A stretch of 63,229 nt of DNA, filler included, from Planctomycetota bacterium (GTDB taxonomy: Bacteria > Planctomycetota > Planctomycetia > JALXBF01): NCBI GenBank assembly GCA_026991575.1. It is 6 parts of 6 records of this genome, joined end to end, with 100 filler letters (N's around TTAATTAATTAA, not from the genome) between each part and the next. Parts side by side here need not be neighbours in the genome. Positions count along the whole stretch, not along the records: positions 20,996 to 49,061 come from JALXBF010000013.1; 5 more parts are not named here. The stretch is one strand, 5' to 3'. Of the stretch, positions 24,657-49,161 are shown piece by piece. The notes beneath the pieces were generated by a model. It was not told the DNA's origin, ran no database searches, and saw nothing but the letters and a program-made list of their open reading frames with translations. Position 1 is the stretch's first letter, and each line of letters opens with the position of its first letter. The position numbers and the translations under genes were made by a program.

Positions 24657-25551
24657 CGAGGACACGGTCGCGCTGAAGAACCTGTCGCTCGACATCGAGG
24701 AGGGGGCCATCTACGGACTGATCGGGCCCAACGGCGCTGGCAAAACAACGCTGCTGCGCATCCTGGCCACGCTACTAGAGCCCACCTACGGGCGGGTCGA
24801 GATCGCCGGGGTTGACGCACTGGAAGAGCCGGAGCGCGTGCATCCGTACATTGGTTTCATGTCCGATCGGTTCAGCCTGTACGAGGACTTGCTTGTCTGG
24901 GAATACCTGGACCACTTTGCCCGCTGCTATGGCATTGCCCCTCGGCAGCGGCGTCGGCTTATCGACGAATCGCTGGAGCTGGTCGGGCTGACGCCAAGGC
25001 GGGACAGTCTGGTCAGTTCACTATCACGCGGCATGCGCCAGAGACTGTGCTTTGCGCGCACGCTGCTGCACCAGCCCAAGGTGCTCATCCTCGACGAGCC
25101 GGCCAGCGGCATCGACCCGGCCGGCCGTCTTGAGTTCCGGGAGCTGTTGAAGACGCTCCAATCCATGGGACACACCATTCTCATCTCCTCACACATCCTG
25201 ACCGAAATGACCGACTTCTGCAGCCACATCGGCATCCTGGAGAAAGGCGAGCTACTGGTTTCAGGGCCGTTGGAGGAGGTGTTCCAGCAGCTTCACGGTG
25301 GCATTGTCGTCCGTGTCGGCCTGCTGGGACGACACGAACAGGCGGCCAGGATCGCTCGCACGCACCCGGCCGTTCGGAATGTGACGGCCAACGGTGCCGA
25401 CATCGAGATACTCTTCAACGGACCTAAGGAGGAGATTCCATCACTCGTAAAGCTGCTTGCCCAGGAGGATGTGCCGCTCATCAGGGTCGAGCTCGTGGAG
25501 CGCGACCTGGAGAGCATCTACTTGAGGTTGGCTTCGACAGAGATCAGTTGA
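24622..25551 (+). CDS. ABC transporter ATP-binding protein (ABC-2 type)
   Basis: GPNGAGKTT, LSRGMRQR, LILDEP and ISSH motifs. Confidence 0.95.
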   Translation: MISVRNLRKEYDEDTVALKNLSLDIEEGAIYGLIGPNGAGKTTLLRILATLLEPTYGRVEIAGVDALEEPERVHPYIGFMSDRFSLYEDLLVWEYLDHFARCYGIAPRQRRRLIDESLELVGLTPRRDSLVSSLSRGMRQRLCFARTLLHQPKVLILDEPASGIDPAGRLEFRELLKTLQSMGHTILISSHILTEMTDFCSHIGILEKGELLVSGPLEEVFQQLHGGIVVRVGLLGRHEQAARIARTHPAVRNVTANGADIEILFNGPKEEIPSLVKLLAQEDVPLIRVELVERDLESIYLRLASTEIS

Positions 25552-25572: not shown

Positions 25573-27204
25573 GTGCGAACGCTGCACCTGATGTTCATCG
25601 ACAATCCGTTCCTCATCAAAGCGCTCCGCGCCCGACGGCACGGCGGAAAGATCTACTTACTGCCCGTGCTTCTCGTCCTTCTCGGACTGCTCGGTATCGG
25701 CGCAACCTTCGAGTTGGCCCGCCGCTTCGGTGAGCTCCACAGCAACTTCGCGTATTACATGCAGACCTTCGACGCGATCTATCTGACCGCCGTCATGGGC
25801 ACCGTGCTGATCCTGGCCGTAACCGCGGCATCCCAGGGGATGGTGCAGGAGGTGGTCAGCGGCACACTGGAATTCCAACGGCTCACCACGCTCACCGTTC
25901 GCCAGATTGTGCTCGGGAAGGCCGTCGGGGAACCGATCGTTGCCTACCTGGTGATCTTCGCCACCTTCCCCATCCTGGTGATCACCACGCTGCTGGGGGG
26001 CTATCCATTGCGGTACAAGCTGATGGCGGTGCTGCTGAGTCTGACGACGACCTTCTGCATGGCCTGCATGGCGACGATCATTCCGGTGCGATCGGTGGAG
26101 AAGAGCGGCAAGGGGTGGAGTCCTGTGGCCGGCTTGCTGTTCGGCTTCGGCTGGTTCCTGTTACCCGTCGTGGTTGCAGCACAGGCTGATGGCATGATCG
26201 GATTTCTCGTGGGCCTGGTCCTGCCGCTGCCCTTTGTCGTCGAGCTGTGGCTGGGCGATTTGTTTTCACGATCAATTGCACTGTTTGGGTCCGTCCAGGT
26301 CATCATCGACTTCGTGACACCATTTGCTCAGGTGCTGCTCGGGCTGTTGGCGGCGACCATGGCCGCGCGCCTCCTCAGACAAGACGAGCGGCCACCGATT
26401 CACCGGGTCGTAGGATACCTGATCGCCGTCGTACTGAGCATCGCCTACGCTGCGCTGGTGCGGTCCCCGGGAATACCGACCACCCTGGAAAGCTCCTGCG
26501 TCTATCCCCTGGGGCTGTCCGCAATGGTATTGATCGTTTTCCTGCTTTCGGTTCCCGACAGGGATGGCTACAAGCGATGGATCTGGCGTGACTCTGAGAA
26601 GGAAACGAGCATCCTTCGGTACCTTTACGCGGATCGCAGCCCCGGATGGATGGCGCTGACCGTGTATGCGTTCATCGTCGCATGGGCAAGTATCCTGTTT
26701 CTGGTGGCGAATCCGCAATGGCCGGCAGTTTACCGGCAGATGTACGAGGTGGCAGCCATTACAGGCTTCTTGTCGTTGGTGGCTTACGGAGCAGTTGCGC
26801 ACGCCGTATCGCTCGCATTCGGACGCGTCGCTGTGGCCACCATCGTACTGTGTGAGGTGGCATTCCTGGTGGTAGGCCTAGGTGTGGAGTTCGTATTGCA
26901 TGGCTACATCACCGACGCGCCGCACGATTGGAATACGCTTACCGGCATGTCCCTCCCGCTTTTCTTCGCCGTCCTGTTCGACGCGTTGAGGTGGACCGAT
27001 GCGGGCGACATACCGTGGATGCACCTGTCGGTTTTCGTCGTCGTGCGGCTTGCGTTGCTAGTGCTGGCAGTCGCCTTTATCGCCTGGTGGACACCGCGAT
27101 GCTGGCGGCGGATCCTGGTTAAGAAGCGGAGCATGGGGGTGCTGCCTGAGCAGAGGGATGGCGGTCCGATGATGGCCGGGCCGGTAGAGCTGGCGGGGGC
27201 GTAG
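25573..27204 (+). CDS. ABC-2 type permease-like polytopic membrane protein
   Basis: DNPFLIK..R, E..SGTLEFQRLT...IVLGK; more than 10 TMs; follows the ATPase gene. Confidence 0.8.
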   Translation: MRTLHLMFIDNPFLIKALRARRHGGKIYLLPVLLVLLGLLGIGATFELARRFGELHSNFAYYMQTFDAIYLTAVMGTVLILAVTAASQGMVQEVVSGTLEFQRLTTLTVRQIVLGKAVGEPIVAYLVIFATFPILVITTLLGGYPLRYKLMAVLLSLTTTFCMACMATIIPVRSVEKSGKGWSPVAGLLFGFGWFLLPVVVAAQADGMIGFLVGLVLPLPFVVELWLGDLFSRSIALFGSVQVIIDFVTPFAQVLLGLLAATMAARLLRQDERPPIHRVVGYLIAVVLSIAYAALVRSPGIPTTLESSCVYPLGLSAMVLIVFLLSVPDRDGYKRWIWRDSEKETSILRYLYADRSPGWMALTVYAFIVAWASILFLVANPQWPAVYRQMYEVAAITGFLSLVAYGAVAHAVSLAFGRVAVATIVLCEVAFLVVGLGVEFVLHGYITDAPHDWNTLTGMSLPLFFAVLFDALRWTDAGDIPWMHLSVFVVVRLALLVLAVAFIAWWTPRCWRRILVKKRSMGVLPEQRDGGPMMAGPVELAGA

Positions 27205-28214: not shown

Positions 28215-29615
28215 TTACTGCGGCCGCGCGCGGTCTTCCGTGCCCTCGATGTGGATTGCCCGACTATCGCGGATCACGACGGCGTCGCGGTCCTCGGCGT
28301 GGTACAGGCCGCTAATCCGGCAGTTGCTGCTACCTTCGATCAGCACGGCGGGCATCCCTTTCGCGAAGACCGTGCAGCCAGACAGATGGATCCAGTGGCA
28401 ATTGCGTATCACCAGCGCCGCAGGCTGGTTGCGAACCCGTGCGATCTGCACGCCGCTCAGTGTACAGTAGCGGCTGTTCCGCAGGAGGATTCCCCCGCGA
28501 GCCGGCCCGCGCCAGTAGTCGTAGCGTGGATTCTGGTCGAAGTTGTTCGGGCCAACGACGACATGGCTTGAGTCCTCAACGAGCAGGTCTGCCGTGTACG
28601 CCTGCCAGAATGTATTCCCGGTGATCACGACGCCACGAGCTGCCTGCACATGCACATTGATCTGCACGTCGCTGAAGACGTTGCCCACAATCGTGACATG
28701 ACCTTCCTGCGTACGAGCCGACCCGGTGCGCCGGCGAAGTCCGGGGTCGGTACCCATGCCCACGATGCGGACATTGGCCGACAGACGCCCTTTCGGGTGA
28801 TGCTGGATCGTGCAGCCGGTGATGGCCACCTCACCTACCGATCCGCCGGTGGAATCGAGCAGGATGTTTGCCGTCACAGGACCACCTTCGGCCATGTTCG
28901 CTTCGATGTCGCACGCGCTAATGTGGATGTTACGGACGTTACCCCCGCGCGAAACGATGCCACCGCCCCGGTTGTAGCTAATGTGGCAGCCGACGATGTT
29001 GGACTGATGGAGGTTGACATCGTCGTAGTAGATGCCCACGCCGGAGTTCTCGTAGATGTGGCAGCTTTCGATGATCACGTTGCGATTTCGTCGGACCAGA
29101 TGGATGCCGTGGCGGACCCGCCGGATGAGCACCTGGCTGATCACCGCTTGCATGGTTCCTTCCAACGCGATGCCGTCTGCCTCGGGATGTTCGCCGACAA
29201 TTTCTAAACCGCGCACCAGTGGCATTCGCTCGCGGTCCCACACCTGGGGCTTGACCGTCGGCGGGTCGGCCGTGCCGTTGTGGCTGCCGCGTAGCAGCAA
29301 CGCCGGTCCGGGGCCGGCCATGATCAGCCGAGCGTTTGCCAGCCCGACAAGGGCCTTGTAGCCATGCTGCTGAAGGTCCACGACCACGGTCCGCGTGATC
29401 CGGTAGCGGCCAGCAGGGAAGCACACGGCCTGCGCTTCGGTCCGACACGCCTGTTGGATTGCGTCCGTGTCGTCATGCCGGCCATCACCACGGGCTCCGA
29501 ACTGCCGCACGCTGACGGCGCCGGCTATCGGGGTCGCCTCTTCTGCCACAGCCGCGCTCGACGCGAGCGCTACGTGTAGAAGCGCGATGCCTATCACGTC
29601 CAGGTAGCGAAGCAT
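28215..29615 (-). CDS. Secreted right-handed parallel beta-helix (pectate lyase fold) protein
   Basis: Signal peptide, SVRQFGARGDGRHDDTDAIQ motif, repeated I.GC.I/I.GN strands. Confidence 0.88.
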   Translation of the reverse strand: MLRYLDVIGIALLHVALASSAAVAEEATPIAGAVSVRQFGARGDGRHDDTDAIQQACRTEAQAVCFPAGRYRITRTVVVDLQQHGYKALVGLANARLIMAGPGPALLLRGSHNGTADPPTVKPQVWDRERMPLVRGLEIVGEHPEADGIALEGTMQAVISQVLIRRVRHGIHLVRRNRNVIIESCHIYENSGVGIYYDDVNLHQSNIVGCHISYNRGGGIVSRGGNVRNIHISACDIEANMAEGGPVTANILLDSTGGSVGEVAITGCTIQHHPKGRLSANVRIVGMGTDPGLRRRTGSARTQEGHVTIVGNVFSDVQINVHVQAARGVVITGNTFWQAYTADLLVEDSSHVVVGPNNFDQNPRYDYWRGPARGGILLRNSRYCTLSGVQIARVRNQPAALVIRNCHWIHLSGCTVFAKGMPAVLIEGSSNCRISGLYHAEDRDAVVIRDSRAIHIEGTEDRARPQ

Positions 29616-29769: not shown

Positions 29770-32700
29770 TCAGCGTGTCGAGCTTGGGCGTGGCCTGACG
29801 GCGGTGAGGTAGGTCATGGCTGCGAGCAGAACCGCTCCGCAGACCAGCAGCACCAGGGCAAGTGGCGGGGCCAGGTCGCCGATCAGCATCGTGCAGGCGG
29901 CGCACGCCAGTACCGCGCCCCCCAGCCACGGCTCTTTGGACGAGCTGCGTGTCCAGCGTCTCACGATGATCCCCACCAGCACCGCCAACAACGCTGTTAC
30001 CACGGCGCGGGTCACCGACCAGGCCCAACGCGATACCAGCCGGCGGTCCACGACGACCAGTGTCAGCTTCGGCCCACCGGATTCCTTGCTGAACCGCAGC
30101 CGTTGCGGTAGCGTGGCCAAAGGCGGGCCGATACCCAGCCGCGCAGTGCGCTGCTCTGCTGGTGCGGCACGCTGTGCTAGCTGCTCTGCGAGATGCTCCT
30201 CGGCTGCGCGGCCCCGCTGCTGCGTGCCAGGTCGAGCCTGCTTCGCGGCAGGCTCCCACTTCTGGCGAGCCAGGCTATCCAGCGCCGCCGCTGCTTTTCG
30301 CTGCAGCTTGCCAACCTCGTCCTCTGGGATCCCGACCCGAGGTTGCGTCCCGTGTTCGGCACCGCGCATCGCGGTTCGGCTCGGCCTCATGTGACTGAAA
30401 TAACGATCGGCTCGCGCACTGCCAGCCCGCGTGGCGCTCGTCGCCCCTTTGCCGACTTCTTCTAACAGCTTTTCCACACGCACCGTGCCCATCTGGTACT
30501 CCTGCACCATCCGAAACAGCATCGGGTGGTCCCGGGCCAGCTTCGACGGGGCAAGTCGGACCAAGGTTGCCTGCTGCCAGTCCCGGAGCTCCGACAGTTC
30601 GCGTTGCCAGCGTAGAACTGTCTGCCGGCTGACCGCTCCGCTCTGGCGGGCTACCAGCAGCGCTCGACGCAGCGCTTCGAGCCGCGCCAGAGCCGTGGAC
30701 AGTTCGGCCTGGTACTCGTCGGCCGGTTCCATGTTGCTGGCGGCACGGCTGGGTCGGGCCATATATCCGTCGGGCAGGAACACAGTCCAGAGCGTGCGCC
30801 GGATGGGGACATCGTCGGCTAATTGCGGCGGGGGGAGGGCGATCTGGGCTCCAAAGCCTAGCCTCTCGCTGAGTCTGCCTTCGTAGACGACCTGGACGTA
30901 CTGTAGCGACTGCTGCAGGCCGGCGCGTGGCAGAGGCACCAGCAGGCCGGTTCCATCGGCCGGCCGGACCACCGGCACCGGACGTCCGTCGACGTATGCC
31001 CCCCACAGGCGTGTCCCGATCGGGAGCTGGATCCACAGGTGTTGGCGCGCTTCGTTACGGGCCAGCAACCGCATCTCGGTGCGGTAGGTTCCGCTAACGT
31101 CCAGCTGCGTGAGCAGGTGAAGCAGGAACACTTCGATGTCTGGCACGGCTGCTGGTGTCAGGACCTCGCGCGCAACGAGCAGCTCGTATCTGGGTGCAAC
31201 GACGCGGAACAGCCAGGCGGCCCGGCGCAGGACGTCAGCCGAGACCAATCCTTCCAGCCCGGTCGCCTGCGTTCGTTGCACGCCGCGGGTGCGAACCAGG
31301 TTGAGCCGCAGGTTTCGTCCGGGCAGCACGACCACGGTGTGCTTCACGCTGTCGGTGCCAAGGAGCCGGATCCAGGGCACGGGGGTCGGCTGTCGCTGCT
31401 GGCGCGCGGGTAGTTCGAGCCGTTGCCAGACGGTGAAACGGTACCGGCCGGTGATGCCGCGACGCAGCCGCACGGACCACGTCGTGCTCGATTCGCTGCG
31501 GCGCGCGATGACAGCTTCAGCAATCTCTGGTCCCTGAATGTCGATGTCCTCACCCAGCGCTGCTGGCACTTCGAACTGCAGTTGCCAGACCGTGCCGGTG
31601 GTAATCGACAGCTCGATCGCCGACGCAAACTCCAGCCATCGCTCGGCGATGTCGGCAACGGTTACCGCCCGGGCCGTCACCCGCGGCCTTGCATCCAGGA
31701 CCGTTAGCTCGATCGGATCAGGAACGCCGCGGTAGCGTGCCGCAAGCACGACGATCGCCCCGGGCACGAGGCTCTTGCGTCGTGCTAGAGTCCTTGCAGG
31801 TCCGTCACCGCTCAGGGGGACCATGCTCTCGGGCAGCTGCACTTGGAGCCGACAGTCACGCGTGTGCCGGATCAGCACCGTGCCGGATCGGTGCTCTGCC
31901 TCCACCTCCGGAAGGACCAACTGAACCGCTTGGGCGTTGGATGGGACGGCCATCGTGCCGCGCAGCGACCAGAGGATGCGGCCGACGAGTGGCTGGGCAA
32001 ACCGCAGGCGGAGGATGCGAGTCGCACTGTCAAAGCTCCACCGTGCCCCGTCCTGGTCGATGTCCACCGACAGCACAGCCATTCCCCTGGGCAGGCGCAC
32101 CCGCAGCTGCTCAACCGGCGCGCGCTCGACGTGCAGCTCGTAGTAGGCCGTCAAGTCGATGCGGTAGCGGCTGACGACCACTTCTGTCTCTGCGCGGACC
32201 GTCCGCTCGCTCCGGTACCGTTCGATCGACAGCATCAGGGACCAATCGCTGCCGGCGAAATGGTAGGCGCCTAAGGCGGCACAGCCGGGGTGAGGTCCCG
32301 GCCCGGGCACGACCGCCGCCTCTCGTGCGATCTGGGTCAGGCCGCGATGCTCGATGACGTCGACCCTGAACTGGTCCGCACAGCCGATCAGAATCGTACC
32401 ATCCTGACGCTGCGCCTGCGGGTCCTGGAGCAGCGTGAGCATGAACCGGCCCCGGGCTGGCGCGGTTGGGTCCAGGGCATGGAGCTCGATCGCCGTACGG
32501 TCCGCAACCGGTCGTTTCAGGCGAACTTGTAGCGTTCTGTCGTCCCCGCTCAGACGCCACCCTGCGACGTCCTGCCCGGCAACCTCCAGCACGACGAGCC
32601 CCGTGGGCACTTGAAGCCGGACCTGATCGGTCGTGCCGTTATGCACCTCGTACTCAAGCCGCTCGTACAGGTGGGCGCCACTGTCGTGTATGTCGACGAG

Positions 32701-35700
32701 CAGGTGGCGCCGGAGGGCAACCGCGACGCGAGCCGTAGTGCGCAGGCGGGGGCGCCAGCGGACGCGCACCGAATCGGCCCGACCAAGAGCGGCCGTCACG
32801 CGCGTTTGGCCATCGGACGGCTCGGCCCGAAAGCCCCCCTTCAGCCCATGCACCGTAACCTCGCGGCCCGCGCCGGGCAGGGTCAGCGTTAGCGTGCCGG
32901 CGGGAACTGACGCCACGGGAATCAGCAGCTCGCCCGCGGTCTCGTCCCCTTGAACCGGTAGCACGGCCCGGAGCCTGAAGCGATGAGTGCCTCGCTCCGT
33001 CACCACCAGCGCGGTTCGTTCCCCGCCGTCGCGCGCGTCGTCCTCGGCGGTGATCCGTACCAGACGGGCTGGCCGATCATCATCACCGCGCGCTTGTTCG
33101 AGCGGCAGTGTGCCCACGGGAAGGATCGCCAATGCGGGGCGATCCACCAACGACACCACCGTTACGTCGAGCATCACCTCGGCTCGCGTGCCGGCGACGG
33201 TAGCTGATACATCCATCGCGGTCACCGTCGCCAGCGGCACCGGAGGAGGCGGGAGGTCTGAATCTGCTGTCAGCCCCAGTAGCCGAAGCGCTGCCTCGGG
33301 AACGTAGACCACCTCGGGCTTCGTGGACGGCAGTCCGTTTGCCGGATCGTAGGGCACGTAGACGACAAGGGCCCGATCCTGGAGGGAAGCAGTAGTTGCG
33401 GGTTCTTTACCCTCTTCGCCCGCGCACACGTTCGGGCGGAGCAGCAGAGCGGATGCCACAGCGATCACCGCTGCGGCACCAGCGCTCGTGCCGGTGGCAC
33501 CGTGGCGGGCTAGGCCTCGCAGCGCGATGACCAGGCGCCGGGCAAGGCAGCTGACCAGCAGCGCCACGCCACCAAGTGCCAGACCATCGGACAGGGGTGT
33601 CAGGGTTGCCGGCAACAGCTCGCTCATTGCCGCGCCGGCTGCTAACAACACGGCACCGGCGAGTAGCATGCGGCCAAGTGCGCGGTGAGGCCAGAGCCAG
33701 CCGAGCAGCGAAATGGCCACTGTCAGGCATGCGATCAGCAGCATACTCATGTGGCGGTTGCGTAGCGCGAGGGTGATCTTCTGCGGCTGCGCGACGCCGC
33801 CAAAGACCACACTCGGCCAATCGGGCCAACGCACGGTCGGTCGCAGCGATAGCCGAGCGCCGCCGCGCTGCGCGTGGGCGTGGCGGCGTCCTGCCTGCGG
33901 CGATACCGAAGGCGGACGCTGTACGGCTGCCTGTTGCTGACGTTGCTCGTAGAGCTCAGCCGGCTGCCGTGGCCCCTGCTGGCTGACTTGCTCCGCTCCG
34001 GCTGCTGTTTCAGGAGCCTCCGCGGCGGCAACCGATGCAGGCTCGGCTTGCGCTTCGAGCGCGACGGCCGCGCGTGTCCGTTGGTCGCTCAGAAGGGCAT
34101 CCGTGTCAAGGAGATGCTCGCGGAGCTCCTCCAGGCTCGGTCCATCCCCGCGACGGGCGGTCGCCAGGCGCTGCCAGAACGTGTCGTCGCTAGGGGCCAG
34201 CTGGCGAATCTGGCCGTCGGCGAACAGGACGCGGTGGTGTGCGCTCTGCAGCCCGAGCGCCTCGGGCGACGCCGGGAGAAGGATGGCCGCTTCCGTGGCC
34301 ACATACCACGGACCGCTGCCGCGCGCTTCGATAAGCAGCGCCGTGGTACCCAGTGGATCGGTGATTTCGCTCTTGGACAGGCTTTGTTGCCAGCCGAACA
34401 CCCCCGACGCGCTCGGGCTATCGGACAGCCCGCTGCCCAGCACCGCCAGGAAACTGGTCGCTGTCGTGACCGGATCCTCAGGACAGATAAGCACGCTCAA
34501 CGCGCGGTCGCGCAACGCCAGCTCATTGATCGGGTGGTCAACGGGTAGGTCCAGGCGAAGCTTCTCGTAGAGCTCCTCACGCTCCAGGAACGGCAACAGG
34601 GCGACGACCCAGGAGAACTGGCGGTTCAGCGGCACGTTGTGTGGGCCGATAGCCGCCGGCGGATAGCGACCGTACTGATCATGGTACGCTTGCAACGCCG
34701 CGGCGAGCTGTCGCAGCATTGGCCGGCACGAGCGCGAGCCGACTCGCTTTACCGCCACCGTGGCCGGCAGCAGGCAGATTGCAAACACCAGTACCAGGGT
34801 GATGGCCACAACTGCCAGCAGGCCCACCACGGCCGCCGGTTGCTTCCCACGCACCATCTGACGGAGGCCGGCCGCGAGCGGCCCGGCTACCAGGGCAATT
34901 CCGTAGAGCACCACCAGAGCTGGCAGCCAATCCTGGTGACCAGTAACTAAGCGATCAAGCAAAGACGGGGCCGGCAGCGGCGTACGAAGGCGTAGGTCTC
35001 CTGTGGCAGCCACCGGTTCGTACTCAGGTGCGTAGGCCACCTGCCAGGTGACCCGCTCAACGGGGATGTCGAGCTCTGGTGCCGCGAGGTCGATGTCTGC
35101 CACGAGGCCGAGGCGGGTTTTCCGGGGCGGCGTCTTGTAGAACAGTTCAACCGCACAGCGGTTCTCCGGGCGAGAACCTTCCAGAGGCACGGCGAGACCG
35201 GCCGAACTGAGCCGGCGCACCACGACGGCCTGACCATTGACCTGGACGGCTATCAACCTCGTTTCGTCCGGTAGCGTCACGGTCAGGAACTGCCGGCCGG
35301 GTGCGATCACTCGCAGCACGGCGTGATGCTGGGCCGAGCCGTCGGCTGCGATCGCGGTGCGAACCGAGAGCTTGCGGCAGACCGCGCCGGCGAGCGGCAC
35401 GGAGCGGTGAGACGTAAGCCTCAGCTGCACGCTCTTGCCGGAGCCGGATCCGCGGAAAGCGGCAATCAGATGGTCCTTTCCCTGCAGCTCGGCCGGAAGC
35501 GTCACGCCGGCCAGAGGGGCCGGAACGAGTCCGTCGGCACTTGCCGAGACGCTCAACTCTGGATGCCCGGCCACGGCAACCAGTAGCCGCTGGCGCTCGG
35601 CGCTCGGCACAGAGAGTAGCGGAACGGTCGCAAGTCGCCGGCCGTTGTCCGCGCGCTTGGGCCGAACGGCAGCGCGAAACAGGAACCTGGCTGTACCACG

Positions 35701-37722
35701 CAGGGGGGACTCAAAGGTAAGTGTCAGTTGTGGGTACCCGTTCTCGGCCTCCGTCCAGCGCTGCTCGGCGATGCGGTGCGTTGGCGTCAGCGGCTCCATG
35801 TAGAACTGAGGGCGCAGGCCGGTGGGCACCAGTAGCGTTAGCCGGTCCAGGGGGGCCTGCCGATTCGTCACCACCAGGACGCCGTCAACCGATATGTAGT
35901 CCGGTTCGGGGCGCAGGACGACGTCGATCTCGGCAGCCACCCTCGAGCTGCGTCGCGTCAGCTCAACCCGCCCGGCGTAGCCACCGCGGTACCGGAACGA
36001 CTGAATCGGTTGGAGCAGGTTCTGGTGCTCGATCGTCTGGTGCACGCTTCGAACCGGCACGGGCTCCAGTCCGGAGACGTCGACAACGTGCACGGACAGA
36101 TCAGGATGGGCCAACACCGTCAGCGTGCCCTCGAACGCAACCACGCCAGGGTCCAGTTGGATTGCGGGCAGCTGGAACGACGCGGTGCGCTGGGCCGATT
36201 CCAACGGTCGCCTTGCGATGACGCTCAACAGAACCGCCTCTCCGGGGGAGACGTCATCCGGCAACGTTGCGGTGACCTGCTGGGTCGGCTCGCCTTCGTT
36301 CCCGCGGTGTACCGTCCAGGAGAGCCGACCCGGGCGATCGACAAGTTGAACGGAGTCGATCTGCCAGCCTGTCGGTAGCCGCAGCGTGAGCTGTCGCAGC
36401 GGCGCTCCGCGCGGGACAACCGTGAGCGAGGTTCTGAGCGTGGCGTGCCGGGGCACGATCTCCAGCAGGGCGGCGATCCCGGCGAACAGCTCTGCGGTCA
36501 CTACCCGCGCGTGCAGCCTCAGGCTGGGCTGCTCTTGCCAGAAGGCGTAGGCGAGGGTGTCCGGCTCGTCGGAGAGTCCCAGTTCCTTGCGCTCCTGTGC
36601 AGAGAGCGTTCGGGCATGTTCTGCGCTGACCACATCCACTCGAAGCCCAGCAGCGCTGCGCAGAACTAGGACGCCGGTTTCCGCAGCCGCTCCAACCAGC
36701 CGGAAATGCGGCAGCACGACGGATGGTTCCAGCAGCGGCAAGCGGATCAGACCGCGGAGGCTGAGTGTGAACCGCCCACGGAGCGGCTCGCGGAACGAAA
36801 GCGTCAGCTGTTTCCGCCGGGGCTCGGAAGCGCCCGCCAGCGTCCAACGCTCAAGCTGAGGGGCGTCCACCGCGGCGATCTCTGCCTCAGCCGGAATCGA
36901 ATAAGTCACTGTCCGGATGCCGGCGCCGTAGACGGTTAGGTCGGTCCTGAGCTGAAAGTCGAACCCATCAGGTCGCGCCAGGTAGTCGACACGGTGGCGT
37001 GCCACCAGCACGGCCTGCCGGCGTGACTCGTGTTCCGAAGGCAGTAGCGTCAGCACGGCAGGCACGGCTGGTTGCAGGGACAAGACGAGCAGCGGTTGCT
37101 GAGGCGAGGGTTCGATCAGGGCACCGTTCAGGAGGATCCGCCGCTGGCCGAGATCGGCCAGAGCCAGTTTGGTGGCGGCCCCGGTAGGCAGGCGAAAGCG
37201 GGCCACCGGATTGCCTTCCTGCTGCTCGAACCGAACGCTCCCTTCGAGCCGCAAACGATGGGTGCCGATCTCCTTCAGCGGCAGTACCGCATTGTCTCCG
37301 TCCAGGTACATGGGCCACGGCTGCCCGTCTAGCTCAGCGCGGCTGAGTGCAACACCCTGCAGGGGCAATCGAATCAGCGACCAGCCGGCCGAGAGCTTGG
37401 CAAGTTCCAGATCGCCGGACAGTACCAGCACGTCGTTGCCGACGATCGAGCCGTGGTACTCTGCATCGAGCACGATCGAAGCGCTCAAGTCAAATGGGGC
37501 CCTCAAACGCTGTTGCAGGCCGTGCAGGGCCTTGAGCAATTCCTTTCGAGCAACGAATCGGCCTCCGGGGTGAGCTTTCAGCACGGCGGCGAACTGCTCA
37601 TGGGGGACGTAAAGGTAGCGCAGCTGGAGGGGGCGGTTGCTGGTGCCGTCTGCTGGCTGATCGGGACGGGCCTCGGTAGCCAGCAACGCGGCCAGGATCA
37701 GGCAAGCGATGCGCCTCGTCAT
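29770..37722 (-). CDS. Giant (2650 aa) exported membrane protein: two ~1000-aa beta-rich units around a DUF1559 domain
   Basis: Single long ORF; GGGAGG RBS, ATG 37722 and signal peptide; internal repeats; QLAAALQAYHDQYGRYPP, FSWVVALLPFLE and VLFADG motifs. Confidence 0.88.
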   Translation of the reverse strand: MTRRIACLILAALLATEARPDQPADGTSNRPLQLRYLYVPHEQFAAVLKAHPGGRFVARKELLKALHGLQQRLRAPFDLSASIVLDAEYHGSIVGNDVLVLSGDLELAKLSAGWSLIRLPLQGVALSRAELDGQPWPMYLDGDNAVLPLKEIGTHRLRLEGSVRFEQQEGNPVARFRLPTGAATKLALADLGQRRILLNGALIEPSPQQPLLVLSLQPAVPAVLTLLPSEHESRRQAVLVARHRVDYLARPDGFDFQLRTDLTVYGAGIRTVTYSIPAEAEIAAVDAPQLERWTLAGASEPRRKQLTLSFREPLRGRFTLSLRGLIRLPLLEPSVVLPHFRLVGAAAETGVLVLRSAAGLRVDVVSAEHARTLSAQERKELGLSDEPDTLAYAFWQEQPSLRLHARVVTAELFAGIAALLEIVPRHATLRTSLTVVPRGAPLRQLTLRLPTGWQIDSVQLVDRPGRLSWTVHRGNEGEPTQQVTATLPDDVSPGEAVLLSVIARRPLESAQRTASFQLPAIQLDPGVVAFEGTLTVLAHPDLSVHVVDVSGLEPVPVRSVHQTIEHQNLLQPIQSFRYRGGYAGRVELTRRSSRVAAEIDVVLRPEPDYISVDGVLVVTNRQAPLDRLTLLVPTGLRPQFYMEPLTPTHRIAEQRWTEAENGYPQLTLTFESPLRGTARFLFRAAVRPKRADNGRRLATVPLLSVPSAERQRLLVAVAGHPELSVSASADGLVPAPLAGVTLPAELQGKDHLIAAFRGSGSGKSVQLRLTSHRSVPLAGAVCRKLSVRTAIAADGSAQHHAVLRVIAPGRQFLTVTLPDETRLIAVQVNGQAVVVRRLSSAGLAVPLEGSRPENRCAVELFYKTPPRKTRLGLVADIDLAAPELDIPVERVTWQVAYAPEYEPVAATGDLRLRTPLPAPSLLDRLVTGHQDWLPALVVLYGIALVAGPLAAGLRQMVRGKQPAAVVGLLAVVAITLVLVFAICLLPATVAVKRVGSRSCRPMLRQLAAALQAYHDQYGRYPPAAIGPHNVPLNRQFSWVVALLPFLEREELYEKLRLDLPVDHPINELALRDRALSVLICPEDPVTTATSFLAVLGSGLSDSPSASGVFGWQQSLSKSEITDPLGTTALLIEARGSGPWYVATEAAILLPASPEALGLQSAHHRVLFADGQIRQLAPSDDTFWQRLATARRGDGPSLEELREHLLDTDALLSDQRTRAAVALEAQAEPASVAAAEAPETAAGAEQVSQQGPRQPAELYEQRQQQAAVQRPPSVSPQAGRRHAHAQRGGARLSLRPTVRWPDWPSVVFGGVAQPQKITLALRNRHMSMLLIACLTVAISLLGWLWPHRALGRMLLAGAVLLAAGAAMSELLPATLTPLSDGLALGGVALLVSCLARRLVIALRGLARHGATGTSAGAAAVIAVASALLLRPNVCAGEEGKEPATTASLQDRALVVYVPYDPANGLPSTKPEVVYVPEAALRLLGLTADSDLPPPPVPLATVTAMDVSATVAGTRAEVMLDVTVVSLVDRPALAILPVGTLPLEQARGDDDRPARLVRITAEDDARDGGERTALVVTERGTHRFRLRAVLPVQGDETAGELLIPVASVPAGTLTLTLPGAGREVTVHGLKGGFRAEPSDGQTRVTAALGRADSVRVRWRPRLRTTARVAVALRRHLLVDIHDSGAHLYERLEYEVHNGTTDQVRLQVPTGLVVLEVAGQDVAGWRLSGDDRTLQVRLKRPVADRTAIELHALDPTAPARGRFMLTLLQDPQAQRQDGTILIGCADQFRVDVIEHRGLTQIAREAAVVPGPGPHPGCAALGAYHFAGSDWSLMLSIERYRSERTVRAETEVVVSRYRIDLTAYYELHVERAPVEQLRVRLPRGMAVLSVDIDQDGARWSFDSATRILRLRFAQPLVGRILWSLRGTMAVPSNAQAVQLVLPEVEAEHRSGTVLIRHTRDCRLQVQLPESMVPLSGDGPARTLARRKSLVPGAIVVLAARYRGVPDPIELTVLDARPRVTARAVTVADIAERWLEFASAIELSITTGTVWQLQFEVPAALGEDIDIQGPEIAEAVIARRSESSTTWSVRLRRGITGRYRFTVWQRLELPARQQRQPTPVPWIRLLGTDSVKHTVVVLPGRNLRLNLVRTRGVQRTQATGLEGLVSADVLRRAAWLFRVVAPRYELLVAREVLTPAAVPDIEVFLLHLLTQLDVSGTYRTEMRLLARNEARQHLWIQLPIGTRLWGAYVDGRPVPVVRPADGTGLLVPLPRAGLQQSLQYVQVVYEGRLSERLGFGAQIALPPPQLADDVPIRRTLWTVFLPDGYMARPSRAASNMEPADEYQAELSTALARLEALRRALLVARQSGAVSRQTVLRWQRELSELRDWQQATLVRLAPSKLARDHPMLFRMVQEYQMGTVRVEKLLEEVGKGATSATRAGSARADRYFSHMRPSRTAMRGAEHGTQPRVGIPEDEVGKLQRKAAAALDSLARQKWEPAAKQARPGTQQRGRAAEEHLAEQLAQRAAPAEQRTARLGIGPPLATLPQRLRFSKESGGPKLTLVVVDRRLVSRWAWSVTRAVVTALLAVLVGIIVRRWTRSSSKEPWLGGAVLACAACTMLIGDLAPPLALVLLVCGAVLLAAMTYLTAVRPRPSSTR

Positions 37723-37789
37723 CGTGCGTTCCTCCCGAGGAGGCCACCGGAGTCGGCGTGCTGTGACAGAGCGCCTGCGCAACAGCTGC

Positions 37790-40700
37790 CTACTCGGCGT
37801 CGGGCTGCGCCACGTCTGGTTTCGCCTTGCTATCGCCGGCTTCGGGTGCTGTGTGGTCGTTTGCTGCGTCGGCCGTGGCTGTCTGCGGTGAGGTTCTCGG
37901 GCGGTTCGCCACGTGGCGCAGGATGCGTACTCCCCCTACGGTCGTCCAGAGGAGGAGGCCGAGGAGGGCCCCGGGTAGCGACGCTTGAGCAAGCAGGAAC
38001 GCGTACTCAGACCGCGCAAAGCTCACCGCCAGCAGGCTGAGGAGGGCCAGGCCAGTCGCGGTCGCGCGCCATTCGAACCGCACCGGCAGCAGTACAACTG
38101 CTAGCAGAAACAGCGCGCCGGAACAGACGGCTACGGCCACCGGCCAACTGACGTAGCGTACCGTGACCTGGTCGCGATACTTGTGCGACCGGTACAGCGC
38201 GTAGCGCTGTGTGGACGGCCCCGCGGCGAGCCATCCGTTCAGTTCGCTCTCAATTTCTGCCAACTCTGGTGGCAACCCCGCCGGGCGTGCCGGTATGAAG
38301 CCGAGCACTTCGGACCAGCTGCTAATGTCCTCCATGCCGCTGGCCGTGACGGCATACCAGCGTCTCGGCAGCCAACACAGCAGGAGCTGTTCGTCCTGAG
38401 CCACGTCGCCGCCGAGCACCGGCATGTACAGGGACAGTGCCCCGAGAGTGCTGAGCTGGACGCTGCCACGGAGCTGGTACTGCACTACCAGGGCAAACTC
38501 GTCATCAACGTCGGATTCCCGTGTGACCGGCACGTAGTAAGTCAACCTGCCGGCGGCGTCCGACTCGGCATCGGCCACCTCGGGCAGCACCGCCCGGCCG
38601 GCGACGCTGACGGCAAGGATACGTGCGTCGCGGTGCAGGGATAGCCGCAGGCGCTGCCGCTCGGTGGTCTTCATCAGGTAGACGGTGCGGCAGGTGAGCT
38701 GCCCTTCGCTGGGGATGAGGCACTCGGTGAGCGTACGGCGGACGAGCGTCTCGGCAACCCGATGCACGGGGGGCCGAGTAACGGACAGCGTAATGGTGAC
38801 CGGGTGCCGCACGTAACGGTACGCCAGACGAGCGCCCTCACCAGGGCTGACCCGGCGCAGTTCGCGCGGGTCGATCTCCTCGGCGCCGTCGGCCCGCGCC
38901 GTTACCGACAGACCCTCGTCGCGGCTGATGCCTACTTCCCCCTCCTGACGGGCCACGTTCAGCAATTGCACCGGCTGCCACCGGGCCGTGCTGGCTTCGG
39001 CTCCCTCCTGCTGGCGTAGCGGGAGTTCGTATTCGAGCATCAGGCTGTAGTGACCAAGGGCTAGCTGCTGCAGATCGACCGTGACACGGTGCCAGCCCTC
39101 TTGCTTCGGATACGGTTCATGCCGCCACTGGCGCACCGGCGGGTCCGAGACAGCCTGCAGGTGCAGTCTCTCGACGACGCTTTGCGGAGCGAGGAACTCG
39201 AGCCGACTGATCCCGGAGTAGTCGATACGGTAATGGATCGTCGTTCGTACCGTTGCTGTCGACTCATGGACGACCAGCACCGTTGCCACGTCCGCCAGCA
39301 CGCGAGCCGGGCGACGACTCAACTCCAACGCGATCCGTGCAGGATGCGCTACGACCCGGAACAGAGCGGTCGTCCGTGCCGAGGGCGGCTCGGGCTGCTG
39401 TTGCGCAAGCTCGCCCAGCGTGACCGGAACCACCCCCTTAGATGCGTCGGACACGAAGACCGCTGTCAGTGATTCCGGCAGCGTGACGCGCACGATGGTG
39501 TCTTCGCGGTCAACCTCTTCGATCTGGGGCAGTTCAATCAGGGCGCGTTGCGGTCTTGGCGCCGGGACCAGTCCCAGCGGTACGACGCCGACGAGCTCCA
39601 GCGCGAACTTGCCAAGCTGCCGCTTGCGGAATGTGATTCGCAGTTGGCGGCCCTGGTCGAGGTCACGCACGTCGTAGCGGTCCATGTTGGGGCAGCGGAC
39701 CGACTCGACCACGAACGAGGATGGCAAGCGGACGCTCAGTGCGAAGATGCCCGCGCGCTGCACTTCGAGCGACGCGGTCATGCGCAGGTGGAGGTCGCCG
39801 CGGCGGAATGAGAGATCGGTCCATGAGTGGCTGCGCAGCCACGGTTGCAGCGGCTCGATGGTGACCGGAAGTCGCATCTCCGCGGTGTAGAAGCGGAAAT
39901 ACAGATCCGCGTCGCGCAGGCGATCGGGCATTTCCGCGCGGTGCACCTGCACGACCCCCTCGGCCGTGCCCGGCACCACGAGCAGATCGTCGGAAACGTC
40001 CACGGCAAGGGCGCCCGCGACCCGCGCCACACCCTGCGGTAACGGAAGCTCAATGGTAGTCTGCTCTCCCTGCAGTGGCCGGTCCGTTCGAACCTGGACC
40101 GTGAAGTCCTCGCTGACGGGCCGATACAGCTCCAGCTGTAAGCGGCGTGAGCCGGCCATCGCGTGCACGGTCCAGCGACGCAGCTCTTCGGACTCGACCG
40201 ACAGGATCCGGTGACCTTCGGGCACGACGAGCTGGAGTTGTTCGACGGCGCCCCGCAGCACACGGAAACGGATCAATGAGTCTGTCTCAAGCACAGCGGA
40301 CTGCACCTGGGCCTTCGCCTCAACGTCAGCCGTCAAGAGGCTCGTGCCTTCGATGCCGGCCGCCTTCGGGTACCAGGACACCGTCAGACGTTGCTGACCA
40401 CCAAGATTGACCCGCACAGTCGTATGGCCGTCCGCTTCGCGCATGCCAAACACCAGTTCCGGCGTGAGCTTGACCGTTAGGTCGGTCCCGGGCAGTTCTA
40501 CCTCCAGAGTGGCGACACCCGCGGGCGGAAGGAAGAGGGTGAAGTGACGGGCCCCGGGCTCGGTGCGCACCGGGGAGAGCAACTCCAGCTGCAGCGACAC
40601 GGTTCCCGGACCAGCCACGAGCAATTGATAGCGTGTGGGACCAAGCGCACGGACCAGCGTCCGATTCGGCGAAACACCGCGCACGGACGCAATGGCTCCT

Positions 40701-41083
40701 CTGAGAAGGTTCCATTCCAACGCGGCCCAACCGGCACCGAGGGCTTCAAGCTCCAGTTCGGCGTCCACCAGCAAGCGGTTCCCTTCGACACGGCCGCGGT
40801 AGCGGGCACGCCGCAGCACGGCCTTGCGCGTCGGCAGCGCACGCAGCAGCACGTCAACCAGCTGAGCTCGCTCGACCAGCTTGCGGTACTCGCCAGCAGG
40901 CAGGATGACCTGACCGTCGCGTGCAATGCCAAGTTGGTCAAGCCGCTGGAACGGAACAAGGATCACGTGCGACTCGCCAACACCGGTTCCTGGCGTCTCA
41001 GGCTGCTCGGGCGCGGGTTGCTGTTGGGCAAGCAGGCCAGTCGAGGCAGCTAGGAACCATAATCCGGCAGCGGCACGAAACAT
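37790..41083 (-). CDS. 1097-aa exported beta-rich protein with C-terminal TMs; paralog of each half of the downstream giant protein
   Basis: Signal peptide, same module order as the units of the giant protein, three C-terminal TMs. Confidence 0.88.
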   Translation of the reverse strand: MFRAAAGLWFLAASTGLLAQQQPAPEQPETPGTGVGESHVILVPFQRLDQLGIARDGQVILPAGEYRKLVERAQLVDVLLRALPTRKAVLRRARYRGRVEGNRLLVDAELELEALGAGWAALEWNLLRGAIASVRGVSPNRTLVRALGPTRYQLLVAGPGTVSLQLELLSPVRTEPGARHFTLFLPPAGVATLEVELPGTDLTVKLTPELVFGMREADGHTTVRVNLGGQQRLTVSWYPKAAGIEGTSLLTADVEAKAQVQSAVLETDSLIRFRVLRGAVEQLQLVVPEGHRILSVESEELRRWTVHAMAGSRRLQLELYRPVSEDFTVQVRTDRPLQGEQTTIELPLPQGVARVAGALAVDVSDDLLVVPGTAEGVVQVHRAEMPDRLRDADLYFRFYTAEMRLPVTIEPLQPWLRSHSWTDLSFRRGDLHLRMTASLEVQRAGIFALSVRLPSSFVVESVRCPNMDRYDVRDLDQGRQLRITFRKRQLGKFALELVGVVPLGLVPAPRPQRALIELPQIEEVDREDTIVRVTLPESLTAVFVSDASKGVVPVTLGELAQQQPEPPSARTTALFRVVAHPARIALELSRRPARVLADVATVLVVHESTATVRTTIHYRIDYSGISRLEFLAPQSVVERLHLQAVSDPPVRQWRHEPYPKQEGWHRVTVDLQQLALGHYSLMLEYELPLRQQEGAEASTARWQPVQLLNVARQEGEVGISRDEGLSVTARADGAEEIDPRELRRVSPGEGARLAYRYVRHPVTITLSVTRPPVHRVAETLVRRTLTECLIPSEGQLTCRTVYLMKTTERQRLRLSLHRDARILAVSVAGRAVLPEVADAESDAAGRLTYYVPVTRESDVDDEFALVVQYQLRGSVQLSTLGALSLYMPVLGGDVAQDEQLLLCWLPRRWYAVTASGMEDISSWSEVLGFIPARPAGLPPELAEIESELNGWLAAGPSTQRYALYRSHKYRDQVTVRYVSWPVAVAVCSGALFLLAVVLLPVRFEWRATATGLALLSLLAVSFARSEYAFLLAQASLPGALLGLLLWTTVGGVRILRHVANRPRTSPQTATADAANDHTAPEAGDSKAKPDVAQPDAE

Positions 41084-44588: not shown

Positions 44589-46631
44589 TCAGGCGCCTGT
44601 GGCTGCTCCGGTGGGCAGTTCGAGTTCTTCGGGCTCTTGCTGGTGCTCGCCTGCGGCAAGCCAAACGCGGGCGTACCGCCAGGAAGCCAGCGCTGCGAAC
44701 AGCAGGTCCGCGGCTACGCTGGCACTGACCACCCCCAGCCCACCGCGGCCAAGCGCATAACCGTGCAACCCCACGGGTCGACCTTCGTTAAAAAGCGGCA
44801 GCACGAAGTTGACGCCGTACCAGGACATCAGGATCGACAGGAAGCAGAGGTGGCCGCCCAGCAGCAGGCCAAACACGTTCCACATTCCTGTGTACCGCCC
44901 GTGGAGCACGATCATGTAGCACAGTAGCGAAATCAGCGCCCAGACTTCCTTCGGGTCCCAGCCCCAGAAGCGGCCCCACGAGTCGTATGCCCAGACGCCG
45001 CCCAGGATGGTACCGGCGGCCAGCAGTACGACGGCTGCCTGGATACAGCGGTAGGTAGCCTGTGCCAGGTCGCGCGCCAGTGCGCGGCGTTCGGGGGTGG
45101 GGCGGGTGAACAAGTAGAGGGCAAGGCCCCCGAGGCTGATGGCCCATGCCAGAGCACCGGCGGCGTAGCTGGAGACGATCGTCAGCACGTGCACGACGAG
45201 GTAAAGATTCGTGCGCAGCACCGGCTCGATGGGCGAAATCGTGGGGTCGAGCACCGAGGGAGTATTTGTGGCGATGAGCATGGAGACGGCCGCGACGGCC
45301 GCTGCCGCGGTGGCAAACCACCAACGCCGGTAGTACAGCTCGTAGCCGAGACCGAACAGGGCGCCGGAGAACGCCACCCAGACGACGGTCTCGTACAGGT
45401 TGGTAACCGGCCCCCGCCAGCTGGCGCCCATGGCGTGTCCGGCCACGATACTACGGAGCACAAAGCCGTAGGTGGCCACGGCTGTGGCGGCAGCCGCGAC
45501 GGCCATGCCGCTCCAGTATGCCCAGCGGGGCTTCTTCAGCAGGAGGCCGAGCGCAAAGAGCACCGTGGCCAACACGTACAGCACGGTCGCTTTGCCGAAC
45601 GGATCCACCAGGTTGTACTGGACCTCAATGTCCAGCACCCGGGTGCTGGCTGGATAGGCGGCGGTGTCCCGCTGGGAGAAGACGACCGTGCCCTGAGCGG
45701 CCCGCTCGCGCTTACGCACCTCGTTTACCTTCAGGCCCAGATCGCGTAACGCGTTCACGAACCGCCAGCTGGCCTCGGCGAAGCGCTCGGATGCGATACC
45801 CTCTTTCAGGTACGCAGCACGTGCCTGAAAGAACGCGTGCCGGATCTGCTGGAGTGCCTCGTCACTGTAGGCGTCCTCCAGGCGAGACGCGATGGCTTCC
45901 GGATCGGCAGCCAGCAACACGGCCAGCGGCAGCCACCTCTCACGGCTCGGGTCCGGTGGCGGAGCCGTTGCCATCAGCCCGATCTCGGTGCCCATGCGCA
46001 GCGTGATGAATGTCATGTAACGGTTCCATAGCTCCCAGGCCTTTTGCTCGACCGTGGTGAGCTTTTCCTCCTGAGCCAGTCGATCGCGCAGTTGGCGGCC
46101 CCAGTCAAAGAACGTGATCGGCCCGCTCTGTTTCTTCCCCTCCGCTGCTCGTGGTGCGCTCGGCGGCGTTACCTTCGCGCGATAAAGGGCCACCGCGCTG
46201 ACCCGTTCCACCTCGTCAGCGAAGCCAAGCATCCGCTTCAGTTGGTTATGTTGGATCAGCAGCACCGGTGCCTTGTCCCAATCATCCGGTTCGTGGCTAG
46301 CCCAGTAGTCTGCGTGCAGGTCCATCCACTGGATCCGAGCGAGCCGTTCCTGATCCCAACCTGGCCAGGTGAAGATCAGATCCAGGGCGAGGGCGACCGG
46401 ATCCCACCGGTGGTTGATCCGTTGCGCAACGTCGGGCGCATCGGGACGGTACGATTCGCGCCCGGTCATGATGCGCACGGTCTCACGGGCGTAGGTGTCG
46501 AACGGCTTCACTCTGCCGCCGTGTAGCACCGGCAGGTGTCGCCACGGTTTCAGCGGGTCAGCTGCCTGGACAGCCGTCGCAGCGGCAGGCAGGATCAGCC
46601 ATGCGATCAGGAGGGTCAGAAGCCGCTTCAT
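44589..46631 (-). CDS. ccsA: System II cytochrome c biogenesis protein CcsA/ResC
   Basis: WWD motif GGVWAYDSWGRFWGWDPKEVW, GGRVKPFDTYA and GLHGYA. Confidence 0.93.
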   Translation of the reverse strand: MKRLLTLLIAWLILPAAATAVQAADPLKPWRHLPVLHGGRVKPFDTYARETVRIMTGRESYRPDAPDVAQRINHRWDPVALALDLIFTWPGWDQERLARIQWMDLHADYWASHEPDDWDKAPVLLIQHNQLKRMLGFADEVERVSAVALYRAKVTPPSAPRAAEGKKQSGPITFFDWGRQLRDRLAQEEKLTTVEQKAWELWNRYMTFITLRMGTEIGLMATAPPPDPSRERWLPLAVLLAADPEAIASRLEDAYSDEALQQIRHAFFQARAAYLKEGIASERFAEASWRFVNALRDLGLKVNEVRKRERAAQGTVVFSQRDTAAYPASTRVLDIEVQYNLVDPFGKATVLYVLATVLFALGLLLKKPRWAYWSGMAVAAAATAVATYGFVLRSIVAGHAMGASWRGPVTNLYETVVWVAFSGALFGLGYELYYRRWWFATAAAAVAAVSMLIATNTPSVLDPTISPIEPVLRTNLYLVVHVLTIVSSYAAGALAWAISLGGLALYLFTRPTPERRALARDLAQATYRCIQAAVVLLAAGTILGGVWAYDSWGRFWGWDPKEVWALISLLCYMIVLHGRYTGMWNVFGLLLGGHLCFLSILMSWYGVNFVLPLFNEGRPVGLHGYALGRGGLGVVSASVAADLLFAALASWRYARVWLAAGEHQQEPEELELPTGAATGA

Positions 46632-46687
46632 AGCAAGCACTCCAGCGGGGCAGGCCCGCGGTGGTGGCAGGAATCGATGCGGCGCGC

Positions 46688-49061: not shown

Positions 49062-49161
49062 NNNNNNNNNNNNNNNNNNNNNNNNNNNNNNNNNNNNNNN
49101 NNNNNTTAATTAATTAANNNNNNNNNNNNNNNNNNNNNNNNNNNNNNNNNNNNNNNNNNNN
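49062..49161. other. Artificial contig spacer
   Basis: N block with TTAATTAATTAA. Confidence 0.99.

Follow-up and report, generated by a model that had tools for sequence, protein, structure and literature searches.

The window analysed here, a stretch of 63,229 nucleotides from the genome of a member of the Planctomycetota (GenBank assembly GCA_026991575.1), carries on its minus strand a two-gene locus (positions 29770–41083) that encodes three copies of one membrane-anchored unit. Sequence comparison confirmed that the 1097-amino-acid (aa) product of the first gene (unit 1) and both halves of the 2650-aa product of the second gene (units 2 and 3) share homology along their whole length, far beyond chance. 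Each unit, by its sequence and the model of unit 1, is built of a signal peptide, an N-terminal tip motif, five β-sandwich domains of about 170–200 aa and a C-terminal three-helix membrane module. In our estimate the chances are about even that the three units form an ancient 1:1:1 heteromeric, non-enzymatic scaffold, which would rise from an anchor in the inner membrane into the periplasm.

Three homologous units encoded by two genes

Gene 1 is the open reading frame (ORF) at 37790–41083 (minus strand, as are all features of the locus) and encodes the single-unit protein. The ORF of gene 2 spans positions 29770–37782 and opens 8 bases downstream of the gene 1 stop; it probably starts at the ATG at 37722, which follows a GGGAGGAA Shine-Dalgarno sequence by six bases and gives a coding region of 29770–37722 and a protein of 2650 aa, the length proposed in the initial annotation. 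Residue numbers for this double protein count along the whole ORF 29770–37782, and not from the ATG. Pairwise BLASTP aligned unit 1 with unit 2 at 24% identity over 817 columns (E 2.9e-7) and with unit 3 at 24% over 831 columns (E 6.4e-16); units 2 and 3 aligned with each other piecemeal and partly out of register. A profile of 55 single-unit homologues found exactly three matches in the window's genome, namely unit 1 (E 1.1e-303), unit 2 (34951–37710, profile positions 9–962, E 1.8e-78) and unit 3 (30637–33468, profile positions 9–957, E 7.6e-97). These values bear out the initial annotation, which had read three copies of one module in two genes, and all 25 of the peptide strings that it quoted were found, colinear across the three units. 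Judged by its sequence, the 2650-aa double protein simply joins units 2 and 3 in one chain.

Unit 1 begins with a putative signal peptide (aa 1–19, 41027–41083), recognised in the sequence as a hydrophobic N-terminus and presumably cleaved between ..LLA and QQQ. The tip follows (40829–40978), with the motif HVILVPF..QVILP and a helix at aa 63–82. A motif of approximately this kind (xIYVPY..L..-G.V.LP..EY..LW) stands behind the signal peptide in units 1, 2 and 3 of all genomes examined. The ectodomain (aa 86–979, 38147–40828) comprises five tandem homologous β-sandwich domains, and it leads into a membrane module of three predicted helices (aa 980–1059, 37907–38146) and a disordered tail of about 38 aa. 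In the double protein, the tip and five-domain ectodomain of unit 2 occupy aa 39–950 (34933–37668), and those of unit 3, whose tip reads VVYVPYD..VVYVPE, lie at 30724–33420, both as delimited by hmmsearch.

The AlphaFold2 (AF2) model of unit 1 had a mean predicted local distance difference test (pLDDT) score of 85.6 and a predicted template modelling (pTM) score of 0.46. It placed all-β domains at about residues 86–240, 249–411, 415–590, 594–770 and 779–979, with low confidence for the N-terminal 60 residues. The membrane-module helices of the model (980–997, 1003–1023 and 1025–1059) agreed with hydropathy, in line with the C-terminal transmembrane helices predicted in the initial annotation, and residues E1004, G1038 and W1046 of this module are kept in orthologues. 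When the family profile was aligned to itself, residues 257–966 matched residues 96–759 (E 3.2e-36) and residues 595–966 matched residues 250–579 (E 4.7e-20). Consequently, the module order noted initially as common to the three units stands, but its division into a β domain, three repeats and a closing domain of separate types does not: the self-alignment and the model both resolve these parts into five copies of one repeat.

Foldseek and a structure search independent of it gave agreeing results on the folds. The modelled domain 5 (aa 775–979) shares its fold with the N-terminal domain of M1 aminopeptidases and LTA4H, with 5fwq_A as its best match (Z 14.1, root-mean-square deviation (rmsd) 3.3, 172 residues aligned), followed by 3qnf_A (Z 13.1) and more than 15 further M1 entries at Z 10–13. 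This fold is also present in TAF2. The M1 enzymes (5fwq_A, 3qnf_A, 1z1w_A) carry such a domain together with a thermolysin-like catalytic domain, whereas in the units the domain is repeated five times and membrane-anchored, and both the catalytic domain and the zinc motif are missing; the units had no match to Pfam Peptidase_M1 or M1_N. In the model, domains 1–2 resemble ribophorin I (6s7o_E; Z 12.4, 302 residues aligned) and Ost1 (6c26_1; Z 11.0), with Foldseek E-values of 4e-9 to 2e-7 to both, although an rmsd of 19.6 for the ribophorin I pair means that the orientation of the two domains differs. Domain 1 also matched ITIH1 (Z 8.8), and the match to PIG-T was weaker (Z 6.0). Domains 2–4 gave generic stalk matches only, to SpaD, SpaA, cohesins, SdrD and integrin alpha-M, at Z 6–7, a range that reflects a common arrangement.

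Ribophorin I / Ost1 is a non-catalytic subunit of the eukaryotic oligosaccharyltransferase. Like the units, the proteins of this group (6s7o_E, 6c26_1, 8b6l_O) have non-catalytic tandem β-sandwich domains that face away from the cytoplasm and lead into a membrane anchor. However, ribophorin I is a eukaryotic protein of the endoplasmic reticulum with two domains and one helix, and the planctomycete units are bacterial, with five domains and three helices; neither the 1097-aa protein nor its single domains matched the Pfam Ribophorin_I profile. Stalks of β-sandwich domains also occur in integrin alpha legs (Foldseek E 1e-8 to 1e-6 to integrin alpha chains), Gram-positive pilin shafts and cohesins, from all of which the units differ in being anchored by a C-terminal helix bundle.

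No Pfam family was found for the 1097-aa protein at E 0.01 or for its single domains at E 10, and NCBIfam gave no match for any domain of the unit. Sequence searches of the PDB with the protein and with the profile returned nothing for the repeat units, the best match being PsaE at E 0.013, which we take as chance. These libraries thus bear out the undescribed status suggested at the outset, and the profile and library searches revealed both similarity between the three units and no characterised family to which they belong. A BatD-type 'oxygen tolerance' protein was considered and rejected by sequence, as hmmscan against all Pfam-A matched Pfam BatD to neither protein, giving no family for the 1097-aa one and DUF1559 alone for the 2650-aa one; the structure searches did not return a BatD entry either. 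No catalytic domain was apparent by Pfam, by NCBIfam or in the AF2 model of unit 1, which consists of β domains and membrane helices, and the units are thus non-enzymatic as far as these sources can tell. The initial remark that no enzyme motif was visible is sound, but it had overlooked a known domain, DUF1559/SBP_bac_10, and an extra helix pair in the 2650-aa protein.

Distribution, gene order and descent

A phmmer search with unit 1 returned 2140 cluster representatives at E ≤ 1e-3, 327 of them at E ≤ 1e-30. In profile searches the family was present in 29 of 31 related genomes and, at E 1e-10, in at least 60 of 151 sampled genomes of the phylum, a tally that is a floor, since a stricter-than-usual first look was used. 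The taxa among 61 loci were Planctomycetaceae (Gimesia, Thalassoglobus, Fuerstiella, Planctomicrobium), Pirellulales (Blastopirellula, Thermoguttaceae) and two Verrucomicrobiales, and one protein cluster contained members from Verrucomicrobiae. Two others of these 61 loci, each with a complete single and double gene (L070, L078), come from metagenome-assembled genomes labelled Anaerolineales, which could reflect mis-binning or transfer outside the Planctomycetes–Verrucomicrobia–Chlamydiae (PVC) group. Relatives were named 'hypothetical' throughout, save one 'general secretion pathway protein G', among five to six word-index matches and the cluster names; the nearest ESM Atlas clusters were unnamed, and no description of such a family was found in the literature at the level of titles and abstracts. 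The folds and the DUF1559 domain are already known; the family, its five-fold repeat, the set of three paralogues and the internal pilin match no system known from Pfam, NCBIfam, PDB sequences or the literature surveyed.

Gene order was assessed at 59 loci with a long match. After setting aside 18 with less than 8 kb downstream and 13 whose first match was something other than an intact single gene, 28 informative loci were left: 22 carried a single gene and a double gene, 3 carried three separate genes and 3 were arranged otherwise. A conserved total of three units, for which the initial annotation had proposed a synteny survey, was thus present at 25 of the 28. The unfused form is seen, for example, in genomes G119 (proteins of 1128, 1237 and 1138 aa) and G041, in which the unfused proteins end at the unit 2 membrane module. 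No conserved neighbour gene emerged from a Pfam scan of 5 genomes or from clustering of 116 flanking ORFs of 25 loci, where sharing was confined to one Gimesia-like group.

A maximum-likelihood tree of 37 unit ectodomains fell into three groups, each on one side of a branch: all singles; the N-terminal halves of doubles with the second genes of unfused trios; and the C-terminal halves with the third genes. Support for the three clades (UFBoot/SH-aLRT) was 100/99, 100/99 and 99/100. These three supported clades indicate that the triplication is old and predates the divergence of the lineages, and that each copy was kept and none replaced another. Many genomes also possess a second, strongly diverged single and double pair (singles of about 1130–1250 aa, doubles of about 1980–2740 aa; for example, G022:C1:6617500-6626956 (L032) and G010:C1:3502001-3512000 (L033)), the halves of which fall on long branches within the unit 2 and unit 3 groups; the window's genome has one set only.

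The membrane-proximal hot spot and the pilin-like module

All three units have additional sequence at a single hot spot, which separates the domain 5 core from the final β-hairpin ahead of the membrane. It amounts to about 40 aa in unit 1, a pilin-like module in unit 2 and about 200 aa, probably helical, in unit 3. The unit 3 insert (30100–30723, placed by the positions of the flanking motifs) reads as rich in Ala, Arg, Glu and Gln, and it is followed by the closing hairpin and membrane module of that unit (29770–30099; hydropathy peaks within 2589–2659, weak profile match). In unit 2, a hydrophobic helix pair (34774–34920; aa 955–973 and 985–1003 by hydropathy), the second member of which resembles a pilin α-1 helix (..LLPATVAVKR..), precedes a DUF1559 pseudopilin-like head (34294–34731). 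Behind the head lie a low-complexity linker rich in Ala, Pro and Gln, without a Pfam family match (33859–34293), and then a segment (33421–33858; hydropathy 1345–1454) with the closing β-hairpin, the three-helix membrane module and a signal-peptide-like helix of unit 3. The latter indicates that the former signal peptide of unit 3 was retained in the fusion as a fourth helix, which would keep both ectodomains on the same side and renders the predicted topology self-consistent. The membrane modules are the least conserved part of the units (matches at E 1e-8 to above 1): in relatives, the unit 2 module matches profile positions of about 960–1090 at E about 1e-8 to 1e-5, and that of the window gave no profile match (i-E 0.75).

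Other proteins of the family carry different modules at the hot spot. The orthologous double of G052 (L029:54-8750, 2898 aa) has an SQHop_cyclase_C domain (E 7.5e-10, aa 2467–2583) in its unit 3 insert, and PKD (P0130) or MORN (P0094) domains occupy the unit 3 insert or the unit 2 insert of other doubles; the hot spot thus appears to accept varied modules. An additional N-terminal domain of about 230 aa (consensus ..NAPGVWGN..) stands before unit 2 in P0063, P0074, P0077, P0101, P0110, P0117, P0126 and P0138; it is absent from the window's double, and no Pfam family was found for it in the members scanned.

The DUF1559/SBP_bac_10 (PF07596) match at aa 1018–1163 of the double protein scored 71.2 bits against a cut-off of 23.3 (E 1.9e-19) and was recovered in the genome search at E 4.6e-20; it covers profile positions 11–184 of 268 and is therefore a partial domain. 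Relatives carry kindred sequences in the same place, with a T2SSG domain in P0063 (E 4.7e-25) and the start of a DUF1559 domain in P0099. In the unfused trio of G041, the second gene resembles PilA (E 4.6e-8) and GspG (E 0.001), although neither match reaches the curated cut-off of its model. Many doubles share the pattern ..RRGxxG-hydrophobic helix-LLPAL..AKAKA...NNLKQIGLA..Y.., which is that of a pseudopilin, placed internally and without F+1/E+5. A small model of this element, which we built from 13 segments, detected it at a fixed position in 27 of 44 proteins of at least 1900 aa (the 13 seeds included) and in 2 of 142 shorter proteins, one a fragment of a double and the other the second gene of G041; on the named loci it gave 10 further, weaker matches. 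Alignment of the window's segment to 16 further ones showed G33, P67, P102, G188, F190, P231, R245, D250 and G251 to be invariant, so that the R..DG motif is conserved.

The leader of type IV pilins ends in glycine, with phenylalanine at +1 and glutamate at +5. This signature is not found in the local sequence of unit 2 (..VRGKQPAAVVGLLAVV..), where the helix is internal and not N-terminal. The hydrophobic α-1 helix with LLPA, the DUF1559 head and R..DG link the module to the DUF1559 / H-X9-DG pseudopilin-like proteins of Planctomycetota and to GspG of type II secretion. Those proteins carry it N-terminally, whereas in unit 2 it stands behind an ectodomain of about 950 aa and a membrane helix and, unlike in them, is followed by a further membrane module and the whole of unit 3. 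The module's predicted topology, a basic cytoplasmic loop, a helix that crosses the membrane outwards and a periplasmic head, would match that of an uncleaved prepilin. AF2 predicted the segment poorly (mean pLDDT 56.3), resolving only a 55-residue helix. The window's own genome has 31 DUF1559 matches. Co-occurrence of the three-unit family with DUF1559 was considered and rejected, the two being present in 60 and 23 of the 151 genomes, respectively.

Proposed assembly, competing explanations and genomic setting

The fixed set, the fixed order, the repeated fusion of units 2 and 3 and the lack of any other conserved partner suggest an obligate 1:1:1 assembly of three non-redundant subunits. The existence of units 2 and 3 in fused and unfused forms is a classic sign of interacting partners, and three old orthologous lineages are what a fixed hetero-oligomer would predict. 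To model contacts between the units, the three tips with their first domains (aa 26–250, 39–256 and 1455–1690) were submitted to complex prediction, which yielded an ipSAE interface score of 0.33 (runs 0.50, 0.31 and 0.33) against 0.00 for the best control; the runs shared at least 28% of contacts, and the pLDDT of the partners was at least 69. The mark thereby passed is reached by 116 of 157 solved complexes and by 2 of 215 mismatched sets, and the range of 0.60 or under holds only 18 of those 157 solved complexes along with both passing mismatches, so the prediction gives weak support. For the pseudo-trimeric scaffold suggested in the initial annotation, the homology, the module order, the conserved set and the three old orthologous lineages are in place, and its trimeric contact has this weak prediction behind it. 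As only short disordered tails would face the cytoplasm, a signalling role is unlikely; these tails, the absence of a catalytic domain and the low conservation of the membrane modules favour a structural role.

We propose that three ancient paralogues are encoded here by an operon that is complete in itself. A Sec-type signal peptide would export each unit, and the C-terminal three-helix module would hold it in the inner membrane, so that a stalk of five domains of the LTA4H-N/ribophorin-I type stands in the periplasm with the tip motif distal to the membrane. The fusion of units 2 and 3 would fix their ratio. The conserved distal tips may contact each other, or a partner in the wall or outer membrane, and through them the stalks could reach out from the inner membrane towards these layers as a strut or tether. 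The membrane-proximal hot spot would hold lineage-specific adaptor modules, chiefly the uncleaved-looking pilin-type helix with its DUF1559 head, which may link the base of the complex to pilin-type membrane proteins.

Several points weigh against this scaffold. The signal peptides and membrane helices are known solely from hydropathy, sequence reading and AF2 helices, and at a pTM of 0.46 the model does not fix how the five domains lie relative to one another nor, in consequence, a straight rod. Binding between the units is argued from a weak computed pass, and a fold shared with ribophorin I or M1 N-terminal domains is uninformative on function. The module is not universal, as 91 of the 151 phylum genomes had no match at E 1e-10 in the stricter first look, and G034, G036, G037, G040, G043, G068, G114 and G129 showed only a double and no single. 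The putative adaptor is likewise uneven: the pilin-like helix went undetected in 17 of the 44 doubles, six close orthologues among them, and DUF1559 has the narrower distribution of the two families.

The main rival to a structural scaffold is a role in a type IV filament system, whether pseudopilus or pilus, in which the pilin-like helix and head of unit 2 would serve as a membrane-tethered primer, anchor or docking site for the many free pseudopilin-like proteins. The fibre would then be guided or caged by the stalks, and the RRGxxG that precedes the helix in relatives could be a prepilin-peptidase site at which the fusion is cut. The DUF1559 head, the T2SSG and DUF1559 matches in P0063 and P0099, the sub-threshold PilA and GspG matches of G041, the motif shared by 27 doubles with its conserved R..DG and the many DUF1559 matches in the window's genome all speak for it. 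We nevertheless regard it as rather unlikely, because no gene for a secretion ATPase, a platform protein, a secretin or a prepilin peptidase was a conserved neighbour in the 5 genomes scanned or at the 25 clustered loci, the helix is without F+1/E+5 and undetected in the 17 doubles, DUF1559 trails the three-unit family in its spread, and the AF2 prediction of the module is poor. A bolder version of the idea, which we hold to be quite improbable, is a periplasm-spanning heterotrimeric machine peculiar to the PVC bacteria, with a pilin built into its base, which would be the missing membrane platform or anchor for their large and so far unexplained pseudopilin-like families. In such a machine, a prepilin peptidase could cut the glycine-ended leader-like loop present in many lineages, releasing or activating the pilin-headed half. 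If true, this would add a new class to the type IV filament-related apparatuses, one that lacks the customary ATPase or secretin genes alongside, and it might have a link to fibre-based macromolecule uptake.

It is unlikely, too, that the units are three independent paralogous envelope proteins without a joint complex, such as redundant binding or spacer proteins held together by tandem duplication alone. The duplicates are indeed adjacent, the predicted tip binding is weak, some genomes have two units only and many have the second diverged pair; yet redundant tandem copies are usually lost or variable, whereas here three lineages with 98–100% bootstrap support were all retained, the order was fixed (22 + 3 of 28 loci) and even the second pair splits into unit 2-like and unit 3-like halves, albeit on long branches. 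A membrane transporter or channel worked by the 9–13 helices, with the β stalks as a periplasmic funnel or substrate-binding arm, would account for the three helices per unit, the extra helices of unit 2, the Glu conserved at the cytoplasmic end of helix 1 and the Gly in helix 3. We deem this highly improbable, given that Pfam and NCBIfam showed no transporter family match, that the membrane modules are the parts that diverge most and that no ATPase or other energy-coupling gene is conserved nearby. Ribophorin I scaffolds the oligosaccharyltransferase, and PIG-T the GPI transamidase. By analogy, the units could hold a periplasm-facing membrane enzyme, such as a glycosyltransferase or other transferase, which would fit the fold similarities to ribophorin I/Ost1 and, more faintly, to PIG-T, as well as a PMT-type glycosyltransferase gene that adjoins the second pair in one genome. 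However, there is no Ribophorin_I sequence match, and the architecture differs in its number of domains and helices. An enzyme neighbour was seen in 1 of 5 genomes scanned and none recurred among the 25 clustered loci; an STT3-type partner was likewise missing from these neighbours, no genome search having been aimed at STT3. This analogy is the least probable of the readings, and the structural scaffold remains the one that we prefer.

Beyond the locus, the gene directly downstream of the double gene (28215–29615, minus strand) encodes a 466-aa right-handed β-helix protein (Beta_helix, NosD, pectate-lyase-like); neither this NosD-like gene nor the Na/Ca exchanger gene upstream in the window recurs next to the pair elsewhere. 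Two minus-strand genes for cytochrome c biogenesis system II, each product with a large unmatched N-terminal part, carry Cytochrom_C_asm at aa 450–651 of 720 (44589–46751) and ResB at aa 589–661 of 722 (46688–48856). Just past the contig end at 49061 lies a DDE_5 transposase gene (49114–49998, minus strand); the window extends beyond this contig in both directions. Positions 3151–5889 (minus strand) encode a 912-aa PSCyt2 + PSD1 (DUF1549/DUF1553) protein, which, like the 31 DUF1559 matches of the genome, is in keeping with an origin in the Planctomycetota. A 543-aa ORF without a Pfam or NCBIfam match (25573–27204, plus strand) directly follows an ABC ATPase gene (24598–25551) and is possibly its unrecognised permease.

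The envelopes of Planctomycetota and Verrucomicrobiota are unusual: the periplasm is enlarged, the surface bears pits with fibres, and orphan pseudopilin-like genes number in the hundreds. To our knowledge, the structural proteins of these envelopes are largely unknown. The model shows a bacterial membrane protein in which the ribophorin-I/LTA4H-N fold is repeated five times, and the internal pilin module offers a handle on the DUF1559 question. The three paralogues probably depend on one another, and the carriers include the culturable Gimesia, Blastopirellula and Planctomicrobium. The locus, which defines a large unannotated family with a confident model, a fixed set of three and a presence in at least 60 of the 151 phylum genomes, is a testable candidate for a major envelope complex.

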